Positions 6,344 to 13,190 of a DNA stretch of 32,000 bases are shown here, piece after piece. The notes beneath the pieces were generated by a model. That model had not been told where the DNA came from, searched no databases, and was given only the letters and a program-made list of their open reading frames with translations. A program made the position numbers and the translations under genes. The DNA comes from Brasilonema sennae CENA114. GTDB lineage: Bacteria > Cyanobacteriota > Cyanobacteriia > Cyanobacteriales > Nostocaceae. How positions within the stretch are numbered: position 1 is the first letter of the stretch; the number at the start of each line of letters is the position of its first letter. The stretch covers positions 4,274,399-4,306,398 of the forward strand of contig NZ_CP030118.1 of assembly GCF_006968745.1 (NCBI RefSeq), given 5' to 3'.

Positions 6344-7267
6344 TCACTCATCAGTATTTTCGTGACTTTCTTGATTTTTGGGAATCAGTCGCCAAGCAGT
6401 GGTTTTCTCAATATTTACAGACAATTGTTCCAAATTTTCTCCTAAATCTTTTTGTAGCTTTTGAGTTAGTGTAATTGGAAAATCGAAATCTATGTCTTGA
6501 GTTTGTACTAGCTTTGCGAGTTCTACAAATGCTACCTTCACTGTTTTTCGCTCAGAGGAAGAAAGCTTGAAGTAGGAACTTTCTGGTAGATTCTGAGCAA
6601 GCATAGCTTTTTTTATTCGCTCTTGTAAATGCGCGAATTCCGAGTCTATGAGTTTCCATTGTTGCTCAAGCTGTGCATATCTTGCATTCAGTGATGTTAG
6701 GTTTTCTGTGGTAGGCTCTGGATTAATTTCTTTGTTTAATTCTATCAAACGTTGATGGATTTGAGCAAGATAAATGCAGTCTAGGTAAGCATACTCTATT
6801 TGTTCTTCTGTGAGTGGTCGCTTTCCCCAGTCGCTGGTTTGTTCTTGTTTCTCTATATTCTTAAAATCACAAAGTTCTGCTGCTAATGTTTTTAATTGGT
6901 AGTTAGGTACTGGTAAGGCATAGTAGGGAATTTTTTTTGCCATTTCCAGAGTGCAAGTGATATTTGTAGCCTTTTTGTTACCCAGATATTTCACATCAAA
7001 GTTAGCATTATGAAAAACTTTTTCAATTTGGGGATTGAGCATAATTTTGTCAATGAACTCAGCCACAATATCAGGATGATTGAGTACATCTAAAATATGG
7101 GTGTGTTCGCCACTCAAGTCTGTTGGATCATCTAATACCTGAATCAGTGATAGTCTCGGACTACGACTTTTGTATTCTGCGATTTCTGTATCAATCCACA
7201 AAGTATGAGCTTGAGTATATTCAGCAACAAGAGAACGCATTTCGCTAGCTGAAGTCAAATATGGCAT
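6344..7267 (-). CDS. DEDDy 3'-5' exonuclease (RNase D / WRN-exonuclease-like) with a C-terminal helical extension
   Basis: The three Exo motifs are present: ExoI WIDTEIA, ExoII HNANFDVKYL and ExoIII IEYAYLDCIYL. The track ORF starts at a TTG at 7294. I prefer the ATG at 7267 (MPYLTSASE..). Confidence 0.8.
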   Translation of the reverse strand: MPYLTSASEMRSLVAEYTQAHTLWIDTEIAEYKSRSPRLSLIQVLDDPTDLSGEHTHILDVLNHPDIVAEFIDKIMLNPQIEKVFHNANFDVKYLGNKKATNITCTLEMAKKIPYYALPVPNYQLKTLAAELCDFKNIEKQEQTSDWGKRPLTEEQIEYAYLDCIYLAQIHQRLIELNKEINPEPTTENLTSLNARYAQLEQQWKLIDSEFAHLQERIKKAMLAQNLPESSYFKLSSSERKTVKVAFVELAKLVQTQDIDFDFPITLTQKLQKDLGENLEQLSVNIEKTTAWRLIPKNQESHENTDE

Positions 7268-7483
7268 GGGGTGAATTTGCGGAAAAATGGGCAAGAGGAA
7301 TTAAGTCCTAGTTTCCCAAGTTAGCATTTTATGAGTAATTTTTCTGGTGTTATATTTACGGAAGGCGGATTTGCAACAAGGAGATAACTCGCGGTGGTTC
7401 CGAGAAGCGGGGATTGTCTCTATTGTGACTTAACCTCCAATCGTGACACTCTAAGCTGTTCCACATTTAATTTGCATTTTAAA

Positions 7484-7603: not shown

Positions 7604-8233
7604 CTACTGACTAAGTATTAATTCACTCAAGAGTTTTAATACACTTAAAACCTGTTGTAGTTCACTTTCTTTCTCTATTGATAAAGCATAAGAACGAGCA
7701 TATTTTGGTTTTTCTTGCTGAACTAATTTTACGAAAACAAACTCTCTACCGTTGACAAGTAACCCAAAAGTCGGCTGTTCAATATTGGGAGTATCAAGCA
7801 TATAAGCTAGTGCTTGGGGTAATGCAGTTATCACATCAAATTTAGTGCTTTTTGATTCTATAACCAAGATCCAAAGACGTTTTTGTATAACCAAAACATC
7901 AATATTGCCTTTGACTACAATGCTTTCATCTTCAGCAGAAATCTCAGTAGAAGTTTCGGTTTCAATCTCGAAAGATGGTTGATAAAAGCCAGCTAAATCT
8001 AGCAGTGGAGACAGGACTACCATCTTCACTGCTTCTTCTGACATTGGGCGACGTTTAGTTAAATTGAAATAGTTGCTTTTAACTCGTTCCAAAGAGAATC
8101 TTTCTCTATCAGTCAGTGGTGGTAAGTTCTCTACCCATTCTGTAAAAAAATCAGCGCTTGTAATTAATTCCAATCCAAATTTTTCTTCTAAATCGTAAAG
8201 ACTGATATCTCGCGCTTGAATTGTTTTTACCAT
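7604..8233 (-). CDS. PD-(D/E)xK nuclease-fold protein (restriction-endonuclease-like, HSDR_N-like), function unknown
   Basis: 209 aa with ATG at 8233. A candidate catalytic core is GNIDVLV...WILVIESKSTK (D...ExK). The coding region is visibly AT-rich compared with its neighbours. Confidence 0.6.
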   Translation of the reverse strand: MVKTIQARDISLYDLEEKFGLELITSADFFTEWVENLPPLTDRERFSLERVKSNYFNLTKRRPMSEEAVKMVVLSPLLDLAGFYQPSFEIETETSTEISAEDESIVVKGNIDVLVIQKRLWILVIESKSTKFDVITALPQALAYMLDTPNIEQPTFGLLVNGREFVFVKLVQQEKPKYARSYALSIEKESELQQVLSVLKLLSELILSQ

Positions 8234-8288
8234 AATTACTGAAACATGCGGCTGGAAAATGGGGAATACATTAGTATTGTATGTTATT

Positions 8289-8390
8289 GCGCTCGAAGCC
8301 CTTACACCGTTCGGACGTTCGGCGAAGCTTCGACGCCGCTCAGCTTCCGCTCAGTCGAGCCGCTGAGCGCTCACCTTGGCGTTGCCCTTA
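8289..8390. repeat. GC-rich small dispersed repeat composite
   Basis: gctcgaagcccttacaccgttcggacgttcggcgaagcttcgacgccgctcagcttccgctcagtcgagccgctgagcgctcacc. Its composition contrasts with the flanks. It contains the hairpin gctcag..ctgagc and shares motifs with 8938-8956 and 11471-11532. Confidence 0.6.
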
Positions 8391-8489
8391 CTCCCTACTT
8401 TTTGTGAGATTTTTTACCACGTTTCCGGAACATCGAACTCAAGTTATGTAGTCAGAAGTAAGTATTAAGACGAATATGTAAAGTAGCAG

Positions 8490-8930
8490 ATGGAACCACT
8501 CACCGCAGGGGCGATCGCAATTGGGACTGTGATTGCGACTAAGGCTTTAGAAAAAACGGGCGAAAAGGTAGGAGAAACTCTATGGAATAAAACTGGTGAG
8601 TTTCTCGTCACCCTCAAAAAACACTCTCCCCATACTGTAGTTGCTATTGAAAAAGCGCCATCTCAACCACTTGACTATGGTAAAGCAGTATTGGAGGTAG
8701 AATCAGTAGCTAAAGCTCATCCTCAAGTAAATCTTGCTGTGCAAGAATTAGTAGCAGCAGCACAAGCTAATCCACCATTGAATTTAGCTGATGCATTGAA
8801 AGAAATAAAAGCAGCTGTAGAGAAATCTCAACATCCAGATGCTCCAGCTTTTATTCAAAACATCCAAAAAGCTATTAATGCGGCTCAAACTCAAACCATT
8901 GACCAACGCAATAGTACTTTCAACATTTGA
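8490..8930 (+). CDS. helical N-terminal module of the downstream NB-ARC/TPR gene, separated from it by one in-frame TGA
   Basis: 146 aa with ATG at 8490. It has an N-terminal hydrophobic helix (LTAGAIAIGTVIATKAL) and an N/Q-rich tail (IQNIQKAINAAQTQTIDQRNSTFNI). It is in the same reading frame as 8982..11507, and the intervening 51 nt contain no further stop. Confidence 0.65.
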   Translation: MEPLTAGAIAIGTVIATKALEKTGEKVGETLWNKTGEFLVTLKKHSPHTVVAIEKAPSQPLDYGKAVLEVESVAKAHPQVNLAVQELVAAAQANPPLNLADALKEIKAAVEKSQHPDAPAFIQNIQKAINAAQTQTIDQRNSTFNI

Positions 8931-8981
8931 CTGCAGTCGTCCGAACGGGAACGGACAAAGTTAACTCCCCCAAATAATGTT

Positions 8982-11507
8982 GTGTTTCAAGGTTCTGCTA
9001 ACTTTGTAGGCAGACAGCATGAACTTTCCCTACTGCAAGAATTGTTGCAGCAACCAGGCGCAGTGGCTATTTCTGCGGTTTCTGGTATGGGTGGTGTTGG
9101 CAAAACCGAACTCGCAACGCAATATGCACGTCAACATCAAGCGGATTACCCTGGTGGGATTTGCTGGTTAAATGCCAGAGAATCGAATCTGGCTGCAGAA
9201 ATAGTGCAGTTTGCTCAGTTGTACATGAATCTGGAAGTACCGCAGCAGGATTTGCGGGGAAGGCTGTTGAGTCTTAACGAACAGGTACACTGGTGTTGGC
9301 AGCACTGGCAACCAACAGAAGGACTCGCGTTGGTGGTGTTGGATGATATCATAGATTTGGGGAGTTGTCGAGAGTTCCTGCCAACGGCTCATCGCTTCCG
9401 TGTGTTGATGACAACACGGTTGCGAAATCTAGATTCTAATATTGAGGAGATATCTCTGGATGTGCTGTCACCAGAAGAAGCTTTGCAATTGTTGACAAAG
9501 CTGGTGGGTGAAAGACGAGTGCAAAAGGAAGAGGAAACAGCGAAACTCTTGTGTGAATGGCTGGGATATCTTCCTTTGGGTTTGGAATTGGTGGGGCGAT
9601 ATTTGGCTAAAAAACCTCCTCATTGGACTTTAGCTAAGATGTTGCAACGGCTGAAACAGCAGCGACTCCAAGATGAAGCGATAAACCGCCATCAAAAGCA
9701 ATTGCAACAAACCCTGAGTACAGCACAGCTTGGGGTTCTGGCTGCATTTGAATTAAGTTGGCTGGAACTTGCTGCTACGACACAGCGTGTCGGTGAGTTA
9801 TTAAGCTTATTTGCACCGGATATTTTTGCTTGGGAATGGGTAGAGTCTGCAACTTCTCGGCTGAATTGGGATGCAAGTGAAGTTGAAACAGCAGTTGGGC
9901 AACTTTACGAGCGTCATTTGATTCAATGGGTGGAAGATAAAAGTGGAGATTTCGATGATTCCTACAAAATTCATCCCTTAATTCGGGAGTTTTTGAAACT
10001 CAAGCGAGCAGCATCTGAACAAGTTGATGAGTTGAAACAGGACTTACGCACGAACAACATAACTACTGTCATTGCGAGCGAAGGGAAGCAATCTCAACCC
10101 GCTCTTTTTCGTAGCGCGTGCGTAAGTCCTATGAAACGCGCTTTTGCAGAAACTTTTATCGCGATTGCTAAGACAATCCCCTATTCGCCAACCCGTCGTG
10201 ATATTGAATCCGTCAAAGATGCTATTCCACATTTAGCAGAAGTGGCACAAAATCTGACTGATGCAGTCAGTGATGAAAATTTACCTTGGGTTTTTACTGG
10301 CTTGGGTAGATTTTATGAAGGACAGGGTTTGTATGCGCTGGCTCAACCTTGGTTAGAGCAATGTGTATCAGTCGTACAATCCCGTTTGGGAGAAGAGCAT
10401 CCCGATGTCGCCGCCAGTTACAACAACTTGGCTCTCCTCTACTATTTCCAAGGACGGTACACTAATGCTGAACCACTCTACATCAAAGCTTTGGAACTAA
10501 GACAACGCTTGCTAGGAGAAGAGCATCCCGATGTCGCCAACAGTTACAACAACTTGGCTGAACTCTACCGTTCCCAAGGACGGTACACTGAAGCTGAACC
10601 TCTGTACATCAATGCATTGGAACTAAGGCTACGCCTGCTAGGAGAAGAGCATCCCGATATCGCCTTAAGTTACAACAACTTGGCTCTCCTCTACTATTCG
10701 CAAGGACGGTACACTGATGCAGAGCCACTTTTAATCAAAGCATTGGAACTAAGGCTACGCCTACTGGGACAAGAGCACCCTGATGTCGCCGCTAGTTACA
10801 ACAACTTGGCAGCACTCTACGATTCCCAAGGAAGGTACATTGAAGCAGAGCCACTCTACATCAAAGCTTTGGAACTGTTGCAACGCCTGCTGGGAGATGA
10901 GCATCCATATGTCGCCGCCAGTTACAACAACTTGGCATTTCTCTACGATTCCCAAAGACGGTACACTGAAGCTGAACCTCTCTACATCAAAGCATTGGAA
11001 CTAAGACGACGCCTGCTGGGAGATGAGCACCCTGATGTCGCCTTAAGTTTCAACAACTTGGCAGCACTCTACAAATCCCAAGGACGGTACACCCAAGCAG
11101 AACCACTTTTAATCAAAGCATTGGAACTATACCAACGCCTCCTAGGAGAAGAGCATCCCGATGTCGCCACCAGTTACAACAACTTGGCAGCACTCTACGA
11201 TTCCCAAGGACGGTACACAGAAGCTGAACCACTCTACATCAAAGCTTTGGAACTAAGGCAACGCCTGCTAGGAGATGAGCATCCCTCTGTCGCCACCAGT
11301 TACAACAACTTGGCTACACTCTACAAATCCCTTGGACGGTACACTGAAGCAGAACCTCTCTACATCAAAGCATTGGAAATTGCTGAACGTAGCTTAGGAG
11401 TCAATCATCCCAACACAATCACTTTCCGTAAAAATTTGCAACTCTTACGCGATAATCGCCAGTCTTATAACAGTGAACACTTCGACAAGCTCAGTGCATC
11501 GCAGTGA
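8982..11507 (+). CDS. STAND NTPase of the NB-ARC type with a C-terminal TPR array (bacterial NLR-like protein)
   Basis: NB-ARC motifs are present: Walker A GMGGVGKTELA, Walker B ALVVLDDI, RNBS-B-like VLMTTR and GLPL-like GYLPLGLELVG. Eight or more 42-aa TPR units follow. The only start candidate is a GTG at 8982 with no obvious Shine-Dalgarno sequence. There is no ATG before the P-loop. Confidence 0.88.
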   Translation: MFQGSANFVGRQHELSLLQELLQQPGAVAISAVSGMGGVGKTELATQYARQHQADYPGGICWLNARESNLAAEIVQFAQLYMNLEVPQQDLRGRLLSLNEQVHWCWQHWQPTEGLALVVLDDIIDLGSCREFLPTAHRFRVLMTTRLRNLDSNIEEISLDVLSPEEALQLLTKLVGERRVQKEEETAKLLCEWLGYLPLGLELVGRYLAKKPPHWTLAKMLQRLKQQRLQDEAINRHQKQLQQTLSTAQLGVLAAFELSWLELAATTQRVGELLSLFAPDIFAWEWVESATSRLNWDASEVETAVGQLYERHLIQWVEDKSGDFDDSYKIHPLIREFLKLKRAASEQVDELKQDLRTNNITTVIASEGKQSQPALFRSACVSPMKRAFAETFIAIAKTIPYSPTRRDIESVKDAIPHLAEVAQNLTDAVSDENLPWVFTGLGRFYEGQGLYALAQPWLEQCVSVVQSRLGEEHPDVAASYNNLALLYYFQGRYTNAEPLYIKALELRQRLLGEEHPDVANSYNNLAELYRSQGRYTEAEPLYINALELRLRLLGEEHPDIALSYNNLALLYYSQGRYTDAEPLLIKALELRLRLLGQEHPDVAASYNNLAALYDSQGRYIEAEPLYIKALELLQRLLGDEHPYVAASYNNLAFLYDSQRRYTEAEPLYIKALELRRRLLGDEHPDVALSFNNLAALYKSQGRYTQAEPLLIKALELYQRLLGEEHPDVATSYNNLAALYDSQGRYTEAEPLYIKALELRQRLLGDEHPSVATSYNNLATLYKSLGRYTEAEPLYIKALEIAERSLGVNHPNTITFRKNLQLLRDNRQSYNSEHFDKLSASQ
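10040..10129. mobile_element. 90-bp miniature inverted-repeat insertion, in frame, inside the NB-ARC/TPR gene
   Basis: Perfect 13-bp terminal inverted repeats: ggacttacgcacg (10040-10052) and cgtgcgtaagtcc (10117-10129). The length of 90 bp equals 30 codons. The interior contains cattgcgagcgaagggaagcaatctca, which I recall as a recurrent Nostoc-type small repeat. Confidence 0.7.
10389..11396 (+). repeat. eight tandem 126-bp coding repeats (42-aa TPR units) with very high internal identity
   Basis: The motif ggaga(a/t)gagcat recurs at 10389, 10515, 10641, 10767, 10893, 11019, 11145 and 11271, and a degenerate ninth unit starts at 11397. The spacing is exactly 126 bp each time. Confidence 0.95.
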
Positions 11508-11579: not shown

Positions 11580-11996
11580 CTAGTTCCTCGCCAAAAATTC
11601 TTGAACAGTCAGAATCTCAATGCCCCGAAATGAGTTTAGCACTAGTAAATCATCATCTCCGGTAACAATACACTCTGCTTGACCACTCACTGCCAATTCC
11701 AGATACTTGTTATCTTTTGGATCTCGGCATTCCGAAATCTGTTCAGTCACATCAATAAACTGAGCGGTTTGAGTTAAATCCTCTAGCAATTCTTGCCGCC
11801 TTTCCTCGGTGAGATATCTATCAAATTTAGGACGATATAAAACCTCTCTTAACTCTGAGAAGACAGAACTGGAGAATATGAGAACACCAATATCTTGAGC
11901 TTGATCCAATGCCTGACGTGGCTTGCTTTGACTAAACAAAAATGCGCTAATCAATACGTTAGTATCAAAAACAAACCGTTGTTTATTCGTCATCAT
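11580..11996 (-). CDS. PIN-domain toxin (VapC-like ribonuclease)
   Basis: 138 aa. The acidic PIN residues are in the expected context (FVFDTNVLISA, ..ELAV.., IVTGDDDLL). It overlaps the upstream small gene by 14 nt. Confidence 0.8.
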   Translation of the reverse strand: MMTNKQRFVFDTNVLISAFLFSQSKPRQALDQAQDIGVLIFSSSVFSELREVLYRPKFDRYLTEERRQELLEDLTQTAQFIDVTEQISECRDPKDNKYLELAVSGQAECIVTGDDDLLVLNSFRGIEILTVQEFLARN

Positions 11997-12231
11997 TCAA
12001 AATCGATTCTAAAATTTCAGGCGTTAATCCTCGCTCTTGTGCTTCAAGGCTAGCTTTATCCATCGTGTTTCTTAGACGGGCGATAGCTTCTTGTCTATCA
12101 ATTGTAAATTGAGACTGCATAATTACCGCAATCTTGAGTTGCAATTGTTCACGCTCTTCTTCAGAGGCATTGCGGTATGCCTCTGCTACCTCAGACGGCA
12201 CTTTGATGGTAATTTCTTCTGTAGTAATCAT
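11983..12231 (-). CDS. cognate antitoxin of the PIN toxin
   Basis: An 82-aa acidic protein (MITTEEITIKVPSEVAEAY..). It overlaps the toxin start. I prefer the ATG at 12231 to the upstream alternative start at 12318, which would add a hydrophobic, non-protein-like leader. Confidence 0.65.
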   Translation of the reverse strand: MITTEEITIKVPSEVAEAYRNASEEEREQLQLKIAVIMQSQFTIDRQEAIARLRNTMDKASLEAQERGLTPEILESILNDDE

Positions 12232-12363
12232 AGTCTGTTCGCTTTTCTCATCTTTCAATAAGTTTCCCCGGTTTTGGGATGTACAAAAGCATACAACCAT
12301 AACCATTGAAACCACCAATTGACATCAGCAATTAGTGTTTTCGCTTCGTTTCTGGCAATGATA

Positions 12364-12942
12364 TTATCCCCAAATTTTTTGTAGATTGAGTATAAAACCA
12401 GGTAAAACATCCTCCCCTGAAAGAGTTTGAGGTAATTTTAAAACTTCCACATCTTGTTTGGGACGATAAATTTCTACTTCCTGTTTTTTTCTGTTTATCA
12501 ACCAACCCAAACGACACCCATTTTCCATATATTCTTGCATCTTATTCTGAGTTTTTTTCAAGCTGTCGTTAGGTGAAAGTATCTCAATGACAAAATCAGG
12601 ACACAGAGGAATAAATTTTTCTTTTTGTTCTTTAGTCAAAGCATCCCAACGAGATTTTTCTACCCAAGAAACATCAGGAGAACGGTCAGCACCATTTGGT
12701 AAAGTAAATCCAGTTGATGAATCAAAAACTTCGCCCCCGTGGTTTTTTTCATTCCATAATCCTACTTGAAGAATTAAATTAACATTGCTTCTCCCTGTTT
12801 CTCCTCCCGTCGGTGGCATTATAATTAATTCTCCCTGGGCATTTCGTTCTAATTTTAAATCGGAGTTTTCTTCACACAGTTGATAAAACTGCTCTCTAGT
12901 CAGTTTAATTATAGAGTTAAGGTTTAATGTAAGTGCTGTCAT
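12364..12942 (-). CDS. Uma2-family (DUF820) restriction-endonuclease-like protein
   Basis: 192 aa with ATG at 12942. It has the family pattern ..LERNAQGELIIMPP.. and PDFVIEILSPND (PD...E.L). I recall this family as highly expanded in cyanobacteria. Confidence 0.8.
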   Translation of the reverse strand: MTALTLNLNSIIKLTREQFYQLCEENSDLKLERNAQGELIIMPPTGGETGRSNVNLILQVGLWNEKNHGGEVFDSSTGFTLPNGADRSPDVSWVEKSRWDALTKEQKEKFIPLCPDFVIEILSPNDSLKKTQNKMQEYMENGCRLGWLINRKKQEVEIYRPKQDVEVLKLPQTLSGEDVLPGFILNLQKIWG

Positions 12943-13117: not shown

Positions 13118-13190
13118 TGGAGCTAAGCGGATTCGAACCGCTGACCCCCTCAATGCCATTGAGGTGCTCTACCAACTGAGCTATAACCCC
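13118..13190 (-). tRNA. tRNA-Ala (anticodon GGC), CCA not encoded
   Basis: The minus strand reads GGGGTTA-TA-GCTC-AGTTGGTA-GAGC-A-CCTCA-ATGGCAT-TGAGG-GGGTC-AGCGG-TTCGAAT-CCGCT-TAGCTCC-A. This folds as a 73-nt cloverleaf by hand. It has the G3:U70 Ala identity pair and the anticodon loop aT-GGC-At. Confidence 0.93.

Follow-up and report, generated by a model that had tools for sequence, protein, structure and literature searches.

Does the NLR-like NB-ARC/TPR gene in this stretch of Brasilonema sennae CENA114 DNA (32,000 nt, hereafter the window) begin at a gene boundary, or does it continue the small gene in front of it across a leaky stop? The two open reading frames share a frame, and the sole stop between them is TGA 8928–8930, with C at 8931 (Table 1). 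The earlier note on this DNA had reported these coordinates, the common frame, the single TGA-C stop, a 51-nt readthrough segment and a hairpin at 8939–8956, all of which hold; with the frame kept past TGA, the 51 nt from 8931 to 8981 translate as LQSSERERTKLTPPNNV. Of its three explanations (an inactivated or split NLR, a leaky stop giving short and long isoforms, or a two-gene pair), the leaky stop is the one that comparative evidence best supports. Programmed UGA readthrough, yielding an abundant Bell-like effector and a rare effector–NLR fusion, is the probable reading of this locus: this layout of TGA and hairpin is found again in about 80 cyanobacterial loci, which makes deliberate readthrough of the stop the most likely case.

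Table 1 Features of the effector–NLR locus in window coordinates.
Feature	Position	Strand	Remarks
Effector ORF	8490-8930	+	ATG start, 146 codons
Bell-like effector module, coding part (146 aa)	8490..8927	+	Putative; alignment A1, AF2 model
N-terminal hydrophobic helix of effector module			MEPLTAGAIAIGTVIATKAL
Helical domain of effector module	8490-8774	+	aa 1-95
Exchangeable tail of effector module	8775-8927	+	aa 96-146
N/Q-rich amyloid-signalling-like tail	8850..8927	+	aa 121-146, FIQNIQKAINAAQTQTIDQRNSTFNI; conserved across module family
Opal stop, weak context TGA-C	8928..8931	+	Conserved in hairpin loci
8-nt spacer	8931..8938	+	CTGCAGTC (consensus CTNNAGTC)
Predicted RNA hairpin gtccg-aacgggaa-cggac	8939..8956	+	Begins 8 nt after stop
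Hairpin 5' arm	8939-8943		GTCCG
Hairpin loop	8944-8951		AACGGGAA
Hairpin 3' arm	8952-8956		CGGAC
Remaining post-stop linker	8957..8981	+	KLTPPNNV; homologous to linker after NLR-side motif in two-gene relatives
Post-stop open frame, NLR part	8931..11507	+	858 codons and stop codon
NLR-side ORF	8982-11507	+	GTG start, 841 codons, same frame as effector ORF
GTG	8982..8984	+	Mechanical ORF start, not a conserved start
hhGRExE-like motif	9003-9026	+	FVGRQHEL, in post-stop frame
NB-ARC match	about 9033-9719	+	Pfam
Walker A	9084-9107	+	GMGGVGKT, in post-stop frame
TPR array	about 10242-11390	+	TPR_12/TPR_10

The 146-aa module belongs to a widespread cyanobacterial family of 709 homologues, nearly all of 144–147 aa. 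AF2 models it as all-alpha (pLDDT 84) with a helix at residues 3–23, and the module had no match in Pfam, NCBIfam or PADLOC. Homology to published Bell domains is supported indirectly, through homologues that stand in Bell/BASS pairs: relatives 70–90% identical over the domain occur in textbook pairs with the tail repeated at the N-terminus of the NLR (L042, L064, L067, L037). The N-terminus MEPLT... also recalls 'MEPIS', a motif reported in Bell/Hell domains, and the Bell/HeLo and amyloid-tail resemblance first offered as speculation thus appears well founded. By eye, the window tail seems akin to the Microcystis tail IEKIVNFSQRDININEQNITM, of which the adjacent NLR in L067/L070 has a second copy at its N-terminus; in the AF2 model the window tail is helical rather than beta. 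Past the stop, where frames +1 and +2 are closed, Pfam recognizes NB-ARC (PF00931, E=4.8e-18, residues 35–263) accompanied by nine TPR_10/TPR_12 repeats.

The layout is not peculiar to the window. The genome set comprised 80 rows (79 fetched loci and the window), in 58 of which TGA ends the module. A perfect 5-bp hairpin lies exactly 8 nt past the stop in 46 rows, all of them with TGA (46/46), and 44 of these show no further frame-0 stop within 150 codons or before the contig ends, the frame running into an NB-ARC, NACHT or other sensor; among the 22 TAA/TAG loci the hairpin was found in none. A metagenome search whose pattern covered the hairpin only, with no TGA included, returned 34 more loci, every one with TGA at the expected distance (31 TGA-C, 2 TGA-G, 1 TGA-A) and with upstream MEP... 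modules and tails more diverse than those of the genome set. Across the pooled 80 hairpin loci (46 genome, 34 metagenome) the spacer is invariably 8 nt, and frame 0 is open from the stop in 73, the exceptions being in-frame nonsense rather than frameshifts. Extra in-frame stops in those seven (L011, L043, L081, L083, L092, L100 and L106, of which L043 and L100 may be one and the same contig) indicate that some copies are decaying. The recurrence of TGA, spacer, hairpin and frame continuity together is far above chance. TGA keeps this position across Nostoc, Anabaena, Calothrix, Brasilonema, Scytonema, Stigonema and a Merismopediaceae MAG, independent assemblies included; the stop is ancient and fixed. 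The family is carried on both chromosomes and plasmids; a search of viral contigs gave no hit.

This distribution bears on the idea that a fused Bell–NLR gene was recently broken by a nonsense mutation, or that the gene is split or the stop a sequencing error. All-in-one Bell–NTPase fusions do exist in the module family, and extra stops occur in a few loci (L011, L043, L052). Against this stand the fixed position of the TGA across about 80 loci of many genera and in independent assemblies, the conserved stop context and hairpin, and dN/dS values of 0.23–0.53 for the post-stop ORFs (0.23–0.38 for the window against its orthologues and paralogues), a range that marks these ORFs as real proteins under purifying selection. 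We give damage or error next to no credence, and reject recent pseudogenization and misassembly, which the earlier note had considered, on the conserved position and the selection downstream. The post-stop partners in 50 loci are NB-ARC (38) and NACHT (4) proteins, the others being CHASE2, FGE-sulfatase, CHAT-TPR and PsbP-like sensors.

The stop itself is unusual in its context. The base after TGA is C in 68, G in 10 and A in 2 of the pooled loci. Long ORFs in the same loci end in TGA in 20% of cases, with C following in 12% of those, so that TGA-C makes up about 2.5% of their stops and is otherwise avoided in the same DNA. It is documented that termination is inefficient at +4C, above all after UGA, and that tRNA-Trp misreads UGA (PMC5289835). 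When orthologues were compared, as had been proposed, TGA stood at the same position in the hairpin loci; the only sense variant seen was TGG (Trp) in L031, and the all-in-one fusions were without the tail.

In the alignments the hairpin, a side remark in the earlier note, surpasses the rest of the element in conservation and covariation. In alignment A2, 98% of stem cells are paired and the covariation score was reached by none of 500 shuffles, while slid controls pair at 21–55%; RNAalifold independently predicts the same helix. The second stem pair occurs as U:A 29 times, C:G 20 times and U:G 3 times, never unpaired, and over the pooled 80 loci as T:A 42, C:G 36, T:G 2 and C:A 0; Fisher p values for its covariation (1.5e-8 and 5e-12) are uncorrected for phylogeny, and the paralogues recombine. 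A compensatory change distinguishes GUCCG/CGGAC, in the window and L109, from GCCCG/CGGGC in the orthologues L001 and L040, at 92–94% nucleotide identity. The stem contains many G.U cells, pairs that are valid on the sense strand only, and the hairpin is, by these signatures, a sense-strand RNA structure. It is small (mean MFE -6.0 kcal/mol), the window sequence folds no better than shuffles (z=0.29), and a pseudoknot at the hairpin was not supported. Also in A2, the spacer positions C10, T11, A14, G15 and C17 are conserved in a pattern that does not track codon positions, and AAAGTTAACTCCC is conserved in the post-stop linker. Two-gene NLRs have a homologous linker, GQKQLTPTK, encoded as CAGAAACAGCTAACTCCCACAAAA; they have part of the post-stop conservation (KLTP, TCCC) in common with the TGA loci, and that part is therefore protein-level or inherited rather than signal.

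A conserved hairpin close behind a UGA, with a G-rich loop that is conserved too, is the hallmark of bacterial selenocysteine insertion (UGA, SECIS hairpin and SelB), and the loop (A/C)GGGAA is conserved beyond the needs of the stem. Dedicated recoding, with UGA decoded as selenocysteine or another residue by a special tRNA or factor reading a SECIS-like hairpin and the full-length fusion as the main or only relevant product, nevertheless strikes us as highly improbable. The site lies in a linker rather than a redox motif, there are no Cys homologues, the sole sense variant encodes Trp, and a stand-alone short product is conserved here. Typical bSECIS elements are longer and farther from the UGA than this hairpin, whose stem is 5 bp and whose apical loop begins 13 nt after the stop. 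A search of Rfam with the hairpin gave no match, and about 1 Mb of flanking DNA held no tRNA with anticodon UCA. Surveys report cyanobacteria that have selD/ybbB and not the Sec-decoding trait, no Sec machinery being reported for the group (PMC1273633), and cyanobacteria go unmentioned in two selenoproteome papers of 2026. Since all-in-one fusions have no amyloid tail, efficient recoding would also leave the tail pointless.

Where translation of the NLR part might otherwise begin is a separate matter. The window has no ATG ahead of its P-loop, as the earlier note stated, the first being the Met of GMGGVGKT at post-stop codon 53. GTG 8982, taken there as the sole candidate, proved to be the most upstream of several (post-stop codon 18, followed by TTG at codons 38 and 39 and GTG at codon 45), and the later ones would cut the NB-ARC N-terminus further. 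Across 50 loci the first in-frame ATG, GTG or TTG falls anywhere from post-stop codon 1 to 115, often at or after Walker A, the P-loop region or FVGRxxEL (codon 70 in L013, 103 in L017 and 53 in L022, each past Walker A). Annotations vary likewise: in GenBank CP019637 the NLR starts 102 codons past the stop, after Walker A, and in L116 it starts 4 aa before Walker A. The NLR part of the TGA loci has no conserved independent start codon. In L002 a 1-nt loop insertion puts about 12 codons in another frame before the original frame is restored downstream; the frame is kept here although the peptide is not.

These start sites are central to a reading in which two genes are translated separately: the effector would end at TGA, the NLR would initiate by itself (from GTG 8982 in the window and from non-canonical or re-initiation codons in other loci), and the hairpin would serve intercistronic coupling, processing or stability. 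Gene callers and GenBank annotate two genes, TGA-G occurs in 8 of the 46 genome hairpin loci, and GTG is the very next codon in six loci (L023, L024, L035, L040, L044, L046). Cyanobacterial genes, moreover, often have no SD sequence. Classical Bell/NLR pairs are often a few nucleotides apart or overlapping (Dyrka et al. 2020). The window GTG, 17 codons past the stop, would retain the whole NB-ARC, and could thus yield a complete protein, which makes independent initiation possible for the window locus alone. We still judge this arrangement unlikely. Independent initiation needs no frame continuity, yet frame 0 is open in 73/80 loci; no start is conserved, and the commonest next codons are CTG, a poor start, and CTA, no start at all. 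An NLR made in this way would have neither amyloid motif nor effector domain, unlike every characterized architecture. The two-gene pair of the earlier note stands as regards the short product, a member of a stand-alone effector family, but not as regards the sensor, which has neither a conserved start nor its own motif copy.

Homologous modules ending in TAA or TAG are a natural control. These sister loci have the two-gene layout published for Bell-BASS/NLR pairs: the NLR can lie in any frame, at a distance of 24–509 nt, and has its own ATG as well as a second copy of the tail motif at its N-terminus, neither of which is present in TGA loci. The directly fused all-in-one relatives (P0141, P0179, P0218, P0222) have no amyloid tail, LxSxERER linker or internal stop, yet the tail is kept beside the stop here, which argues that both isoforms are needed. 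Between the window and its orthologue L040 the tail region has been swapped as a cassette, identity resuming at 8926, 2 nt before TGA; a swap of the tail only would be tolerable only if effector and receptor share a single motif copy.

The swap could also mean that the TGA–hairpin segment acts mainly at the DNA level, as a junction for homology or recombination that shuffles effector/tail and sensor cassettes, translation past the stop being irrelevant. Modules, tails and sensors are mosaic among paralogues, and at this one junction at least four tail types meet NB-ARC, NACHT, CHASE2, FGE-sulfatase, CHAT and PsbP-like partners. Such a junction leaves unexplained the constant TGA, mostly TGA-C, the continuous frame, the sensors without start codons and the stem covariation with its sense-strand-only G.U pairs. 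As the primary function we hold it very unlikely; a junction role more plausibly follows from a recoding signal or comes on top of one.

From these patterns we infer that readthrough occurs, how efficient it is, which residue is inserted, what the hairpin does, that the tail behaves as an amyloid and that cell death is the output. Under programmed readthrough the locus would be one translational unit with a leaky stop. Termination at UGA 8928 would give the 146-aa protein, a Bell-like helical membrane-targeting domain with an N/Q-rich amyloid-signalling tail, while a minority of ribosomes would decode UGA as sense, most simply as Trp by near-cognate tRNA-Trp. The poor RF2 context UGA-C and the conserved 5-bp hairpin starting 8 nt downstream, an arrangement also seen in known stimulators of readthrough and frameshifting, would assist. 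The readthrough product, of about 1005 aa, would have the order Bell–tail–linker–NLR. If the locus works like Bell/BASS and fungal HET-S/NWD2 systems, triggering of the TPR sensor would oligomerize the NLR and bring the N-terminal tails together; the gathered tails might nucleate an amyloid fold that templates the excess free short isoform, whose Bell domains would then attack the membrane, leading to regulated cell death or abortive infection. If this is true, one gene supplies both receptor and effector, in a fixed ratio and bearing the same motif.

Bell-domain/BASS amyloid signalling pairs adjoin bacterial NLRs (Dyrka et al. 2020, bioRxiv 10.1101/2020.01.06.895854), and antiphage function of the Bab/Agp BASS11 pair was shown in E. 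coli (bioRxiv 10.1101/2024.11.07.622273). The present loci share with such pairs a small helical protein that starts with MEP... and has a hydrophobic N-terminal helix, a C-terminal N/Q/G-rich motif of about 25 aa, a collinear NB-ARC/NACHT and TPR gene immediately downstream, and occurrence in filamentous cyanobacteria. They differ in that the NLR of the window and of some 80 related loci, having no motif copy or start of its own, is joined in frame through TGA-C and the hairpin. The 2020 screen required a motif common to two annotated proteins and so could not detect this layout; neither preprint mentions stop codons or readthrough, and we found no description of a TGA–hairpin effector/NLR layout in the searchable literature. 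All-in-one NLRs (Avast2, bNACHT proteins with MEPIS, fungal HeLo-NLRs) share the order Bell-like domain–NTPase–repeats predicted for the long isoform, whereas here stop and tail lie between effector and NTPase, so that free effector is predicted as well.

Readthrough is familiar from viruses, as in phage Q-beta coat/A1 (UGA), alphavirus nsP3/nsP4 (UGA-C) and gammaretrovirus gag-pol (UAG, 8-nt spacer, pseudoknot). Common to these and the present loci are a leaky stop in a weak context, RNA structure 8 nt downstream across a conserved spacer and, as predicted here, two nested products in fixed ratio from one ORF. The present family differs in being bacterial, on chromosomes or plasmids, with a simple 5-bp hairpin and termination that would be by RF2; selenocysteine insertion aside, no bacterial case is known to us in which a simple hairpin stimulates readthrough. 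One conserved leaky stop would here join a membrane-toxin-like effector to an immune receptor (NLR). The prfB (RF2) site CUU UGA C likewise uses a weak UGA-C termination signal as a bacterial regulatory device, but with a +1 frameshift and an upstream SD-like stimulator, whereas at the hairpin loci translation is predicted to continue in frame 0 and the conserved element lies downstream of the stop.

Reading window positions 8300–9300 and translating 8400–9130 confirmed all sequence statements of the earlier note, which had described a short helical module separated from an NLR-like NB-ARC/TPR frame by a single in-frame TGA. The 146-aa module begins with MEPLTAGAIAIGTVIATKAL, i.e., with the hydrophobic N-terminal helix and MEPIS-like start of Bell-like effectors, and its AF2 model is all-alpha (pLDDT 84) with a helix at residues 3–23. 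Its C-terminal tail, FIQNIQKAINAAQTQTIDQRNSTFNI, has a composition like that of the ~25-aa amyloid-signalling motifs rich in N, Q, and G with alternating hydrophobic residues, but AF2 models it as a helix. Searches of the module against Pfam, NCBIfam, and PADLOC gave no match, which is uninformative as these libraries contain no Bell profile; against the PDB, a profile search returned only a weak match to a WD-40 construct, most likely by chance, and Foldseek nothing below E=0.67. Directly 3' of the stop lies a collinear NB-ARC domain (PF00931, E=4.8e-18) with nine TPR_12/TPR_10 units (Pfam), the layout of Bell/BASS systems, and its translation contains the hhGRExE, Walker A, Walker B, TTR-type sensor, and GLPL-like motifs of an NLR (FVGRQHEL, GMGGVGKT, LVVLDDI, LMTTR, and LPLGLE) ahead of the repeat sensor. 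The statement that a GTG is the only start candidate of this NLR part held in part: the GTG comes first and no ATG precedes Walker A, the first post-stop ATG being the Met within that motif, but TTG is also available at codons 38 and 39, and GTG at 45, counted from the stop. On the + strand between the two ORFs of the window, no promoter-like or terminator-like site was found.

Features of the cassette and its surroundings (positions in the window)
Feature	Position	Strand	Remarks
HSDR_N-like nuclease-domain gene	7604–8233	-	divergent from cassette
Module ORF	8490–8927	+	ATG, 146 codons, then TGA 8928–8930
+4 base after TGA			C
Post-stop stretch	8931–8981	+	LQSSERERTKLTPPNNV; module's frame open here and on to 11504
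Hairpin gtccg/aacgggaa/cggac	8939–8956		8 nt 3' of stop
Second ORF start per ORF finder	8982		GTG
hhGRExE-like motif FVGRQHEL	9003–9026	+	
Walker A GMGGVGKT	9084–9107	+	
PIN-toxin gene and small upstream partner	11580–12318	-	PF13470, E=4e-23; partner 111 aa, no Pfam match
Uma2-family endonuclease gene	12364–12942	-	E=4e-52
tRNA-Ala(GGC)	13118–13190		same tRNA at similar distance in L001 (Scytonema tolypothrichoides)

The module belongs to a family of 709 proteins (E<=1e-3), the best 120 of which are almost all 144–147 aa long and derive from Nostoc, Anabaena, Brasilonema, Stigonema, Calothrix, Rivularia, and others; 346 matches among 50%-identity representatives are nearly all 120–160 aa. Eighty genome loci were fetched, and as one ran off its contig, 79 loci and the window were compared (80 rows). 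The module ends in TGA in 58 of these rows. A perfect 5-bp hairpin starting exactly 8 nt after the stop is present in 46 of the 58 and in none of the 22 rows ending in TAA or TAG, so that every hairpin row (46/46) has TGA. The +4 base in these 46 loci is C in 37, G in eight, and A in one, and the module frame stays open for at least 150 codons past the stop, or to the contig end, in 44; the two exceptions carry in-frame nonsense codons and no frameshift. Metagenome contigs were searched with AGYCGYCYGANNGGGAACGGRYAAAGT, a pattern made of the spacer end and hairpin that leaves the TGA out. All 34 loci retrieved have TGA as the codon 8 nt 5' of the stem (TGA-C 31, TGA-G 2, TGA-A 1); their upstream ORFs encode helical 'MEP...' modules that vary more than the query family and bear many different N/Q/G-rich tails, and the downstream frame enters ...FVGRxxEL... 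NB-ARC proteins. Across genomes and metagenomes the codon at the stop position, a check the earlier note had proposed, is TGA in 80/80 hairpin loci, with TGA-C in 68/80 and frame 0 open in 73/80, as expected of the fixed stop and in-frame continuation of a recoding site. Among 360 long ORFs taken from the same DNA as a background, 50% end in TAA, 30% in TAG, and 20% in TGA; only 12% of these TGAs have +4C, and TGA-C makes up ~2.5% of ordinary stops. Termination in bacteria is weak at +4C, especially after UGA, which is also misread by tRNA-Trp (PMC5289835). No copy of the element (stop, spacer, and hairpin) was found elsewhere in the window or in the 80 loci, and none in viral contigs.

This distribution refutes the proposal of a recently inactivated gene or an assembly error, to which we give next to no credence: the same TGA and hairpin recur in ~80 loci, and post-stop ORFs have pairwise dN/dS of 0.23–0.53, as under purifying selection and similar to the module's own. 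As judged from sequence comparison, the stop is old and fixed and not a recent accident. A single locus, in a Dolichospermum MAG (L031, ~6430–6530), has a sense codon at the stop position, TGG (Trp); it reads ...STFNF-W-QHSSDGERTKL... and then meets a TAA inside the NB-ARC N-terminus, and may be a decaying copy.

Evidence that the hairpin is an RNA structure comes from an alignment of 52 distinct TGA loci. The five stem pairs are 98% paired, with U:A 29, C:G 20, U:G 3, and no unpaired case at the second pair and double changes at two further pairs. The covariation score was reached by 0/500 column shuffles, slid controls pair at 21–55%, and RNAalifold returns exactly this helix and no other. 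The metagenome pattern had left the second pair free on both sides; pooled over both sets it is T:A 42, C:G 36, T:G 2, and C:A 0 (Fisher p = 1.5e-8 and 5e-12, uncorrected for phylogeny). These changes fall on first codon positions and are non-synonymous, exchanging Ser and Pro on one side and Thr, Ala, and Val on the other, and we see no protein-level cause for the coupling. Compensation is also seen between close relatives: the stem is GUCCG/CGGAC in the window and in a 99% identical locus (L109) and GCCCG/CGGGC in L001 and Brasilonema sp. CT11 (L040), which are 92–94% identical to the window, all four loci being syntenic orthologues by blastn. Many cells are G.U, which the opposite strand would present as C-A mismatches; we therefore assign the structure to the mRNA and not to DNA or antisense RNA. 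Conservation extends to the spacer CTNNAGTC and the loop (A/C)GGGAA, where it does not track codon position. In one locus (L002), a 1-nt loop insertion shifts ~12 codons of conserved nucleotides before a second indel restores the frame, so that the nucleotides and frame continuity are kept and the peptide is not.

The stability of the hairpin is modest (mean MFE -6.0 kcal/mol), and a single-sequence fold of the window element is not more stable than shuffles (z=0.29); the support for the hairpin is comparative. With its fixed 8-nt distance and compensatory changes, it corresponds to the 3' structure of a recoding site, with a putative stimulatory role. A possible outer stem pairing UUGACU, stop included, with AGUUAA is 87% paired, but covariation is absent and TGA-G variants are uncompensated. 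A pseudoknot between the loop GGGA and a downstream TCCC (86% paired) is not supported, as it shows almost no covariation and TCCC is equally conserved in two-gene NLRs without the hairpin. Rfam returned no family, locally at E up to 10 or window-wide at the gathering threshold. In L084 (7320–7410), a 'tRNA-???' with an anticodon of four bases is called by ARAGORN on the strand opposite the hairpin element (7340–7366); the hairpin itself probably gave rise to this spurious call. Two loci from Dapis and Okeania (L036, L038) have a module ending in TGA-C, no hairpin, and a short TM-plus-TPR ORF in frame (180 codons in L036); they may represent a hairpin-less layout variant or an ordinary gene pair.

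The post-stop frames look like genuine proteins that lack a conserved start of their own. Among 50 such ORFs, Pfam assigns NB-ARC to 38 and NACHT to four; other partners are CHASE2, a TM segment with FGE-sulfatase, CHAT-TPR, PsbP-like, and TPR-only sensors. Walker A lies 48–61 codons after the TGA in NB-ARC loci, and the first in-frame ATG, GTG, or TTG falls anywhere from codon 1 to 115, without conservation and often inside or beyond the FVGRxxEL/Walker A region (codon 70 in L013, 103 in L017, 53 in L022, and 50 in L005). On the CP019637 plasmid the NLR is annotated (CP019637.1 2464–4728) from 102 codons after the stop, although Walker A is at codon 54, and on a PCC 7120-type chromosome its annotated start lies 4 residues ahead of Walker A (L116 5571–8345). 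Many database cyanobacterial NB-ARC/NACHT proteins are probably N-terminally truncated models of this kind. These observations bear on the explanation that the NLR is initiated independently or by coupling to the module, which we regard as unlikely: it has no need for the frame continuity observed, no start is conserved, and the product would have neither motif nor effector domain.

Relatives ending in TAA or TAG are organized differently. They include modules with the tails ...KLAEKIGQVVMPGGTGNIxNxSF, ...GKIQANEVNF, and ...GGSITQGDIS and a Microcystis module with the tail ...IEKIVNFSQRDININEQNITM. The NLR behind them follows after 24–509 nt in any frame, has an ATG of its own, and repeats the tail motif at its N-terminus, e.g., MSEDSGKFAEKIGVYVAPGGQAxIGTQIIEGQKQL-TPTKxIPRGSVHFVGRE; the paired motif was seen in L042, L047, L064, L067, and L037. 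The question raised earlier of whether relatives are fused or separate thus has two answers, as TAA/TAG loci hold separate genes whereas TGA loci keep frame 0. The former match the Bell-BASS/BASS-NLR arrangement of Dyrka et al., whose screen needed a motif common to two annotated proteins (bioRxiv 10.1101/2020.01.06.895854). The loose resemblance of the module to Bell-like domains noted earlier has gained substance from these homologues in classical Bell-BASS pairs and from the MEPLT... start, which resembles the N-terminal MEPIS motif of Bell/Hell domains and some antiphage NLRs (bioRxiv 10.1101/2024.11.07.622273); Bell/BASS membership is supported by both likenesses. The window tail resembles, by eye, a Microcystis tail whose motif recurs in the adjacent NLR, and looks related to the INxxxQNIxI tail type, which is found in both layouts.

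Neither the window nor any TGA locus contains a second copy of the tail motif, although such a pair defines the Bell/BASS family, and motif pairing in the window could only come about by readthrough. The reading as a genuine two-gene effector/sensor pair stands as far as the short module is a stand-alone family but fails for the sensor, which has no conserved start or motif copy. The GQKQLTPTK linker after the NLR-side motif is homologous, even at the nucleotide level, to the TGA linker 3' of the hairpin, which makes the two layouts evolutionary variants of a single system, in which TGA, spacer, and hairpin replace the stop, intergenic region, ATG, and second motif copy. All-in-one relatives, in which a Bell-like domain is fused directly to the NTPase (P0141, P0179, P0218, P0222), have neither tail nor linker; therefore, the presence of a tail beside the stop argues that free short and long isoforms both matter.

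We consider programmed readthrough the probable explanation for the whole system, by analogy with Bell/BASS, HET-S/NWD2, and viral readthrough. Most ribosomes would stop at UGA-C, freeing the 146-aa Bell-like effector and its amyloid-type tail. A minority, for which the poor RF2 context and a hairpin located at the mRNA entrance would be favourable, would read UGA, probably as Trp from near-cognate tRNA-Trp, yielding a Bell-tail-linker-NB-ARC-TPR protein of ~1005 aa. Upon activation, the NLR would oligomerize and cluster its N-terminal tails, which would nucleate an amyloid fold and recruit excess free effector, whose Bell domain would damage the membrane. Of the three options in the earlier note, the leaky stop is the one best supported at the sequence level, by the fixed TGA-C, covarying hairpin, and startless NLR part.

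A UGA followed by a hairpin also fits selenocysteine insertion or other dedicated recoding, but we hold this to be highly improbable. The Sec-decoding trait is reported absent from cyanobacteria (PMC1273633), which go unmentioned in recent selenoproteome literature. The site is a linker between tail and NTPase and not of redox type, with no Cys homologue among the relatives, the sole sense variant is TGG/Trp, the short isoform is conserved, and ARAGORN found no suppressor tRNA or tRNA(UCA) near the loci. In L102, a 16-tRNA array (773–2344) lies ~5 kb from the TGA-hairpin cassette (element 7700–7726); its visible part lacks the anticodon UCA, and we take it to resemble the accessory tRNA clusters of Nostocales. 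A-to-I editing of UGA to UGG by TadA, which requires a UACG loop in which the TGA does not lie, appears unlikely, and +1 or -1 frameshifting is unnecessary given continuation in frame 0.

The locus shows mosaic evolution. The domain part of the window module is 91% identical to that of L040, but the window tail (8775–8925) cannot be aligned with L040 6286–6418, whose tail is ...QGNTIIGGTF; identity returns at 8926, two bases 5' of the TGA, and remains at 92% on entering the NLR. In effect, ~150 nt encoding the signalling motif have been swapped as a cassette between syntenic orthologues. Such a swap on the effector side only would break a two-gene pair, but would be harmless if receptor and effector take the motif from a single set of codons. 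For these exchanges, the conserved junction may also provide a homology anchor. A purely DNA-level recombination junction, which would attribute the entire element to such exchange, appears very unlikely as it leaves TGA-C, the frame, and the RNA-type covariation unexplained. The TPR array (window 10445–11252) differs in repeat number and register between the window and its 92–94% identical orthologues L001 and L040, seen as multiple offset blastn matches, which suggests rapid turnover of the sensor repeats. The NLRs of the window and L001 are only 54% identical in global alignment because repeat numbers differ; by blastn they are 93% identical orthologues.

The nuclease- and toxin-type neighbours of the cassette resemble, in our impression, a toxin-antitoxin or defence-type neighbourhood; the small partner of the PIN-toxin gene is probably an antitoxin. 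In the AT-rich promoter region 5' of the module, a GC-rich segment of ~187 nt (window 8224–8430) is flanked on both sides by the direct repeat TTTTTACCA (8224–8243, 8411–8430) and includes the palindrome CGGCGAAGCTTCGACG along with repeats of GCTCAG/GCTGAGCG. It looks like a small inserted, MITE-like element, of which the window has no other copy.

Programmed stop-codon readthrough is textbook knowledge for viruses and selenocysteine, but to our knowledge a conserved device of this kind is almost unknown in ordinary bacterial genes. If the proposed mechanism is true, we know of no earlier case of programmed readthrough that is both widespread and structure-associated among the cellular genes of bacteria, selenocysteine aside. 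Each component has been described before, namely Bell-like effectors, tails of the BASS type, NB-ARC-TPR receptors, a weak UGA-C context, and viral readthrough assisted by RNA structure; their combination is not described in two Bell/BASS papers (bioRxiv 10.1101/2020.01.06.895854, 10.1101/2024.11.07.622273), and full-text searches on readthrough with cyanobacteria, NLR, or Bell found nothing relevant. We are modestly inclined to see here a third NLR/amyloid architecture beside the two-gene and all-in-one types, implemented by recoding, in which hairpin-assisted UGA-C readthrough of one ORF would supply free Bell-tail effector and rare receptor, maybe tuned by RF2 or translation state. Readthrough could respond to that state, e.g., during phage infection, and possibly tune or trigger receptor dosage.

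Readthrough, if true, would account for the expression of many cyanobacterial NLR-like genes with 'no start codon', provide a one-gene answer to receptor/effector stoichiometry and motif matching in amyloid signalling, and explain the free swapping of tails between strains. Annotation pipelines truncate such NLRs, in some cases losing the P-loop, and the entire class escapes screens that look for motif pairs in bacterial amyloid signalling. The ~80 or more loci with a covarying hairpin define a compact, easily mutated signal, and the hypothesis is directly testable in the tractable model Anabaena/Nostoc PCC 7120, which carries a homologous locus (all2788 and the gene behind it). The 146-aa protein of the PCC 7120-type cassette, BAB74487.1, appears to be all2788 from accession arithmetic and the matching length, NP_486828/all2788 being listed at 146 aa (PMC2823733). 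This cassette reads ...SSFNF-TGA-C-LQSSGREQTKLTPTK...FVGREQEL, and its hairpin, GUCUG/CAGAC, is another compensated variant.
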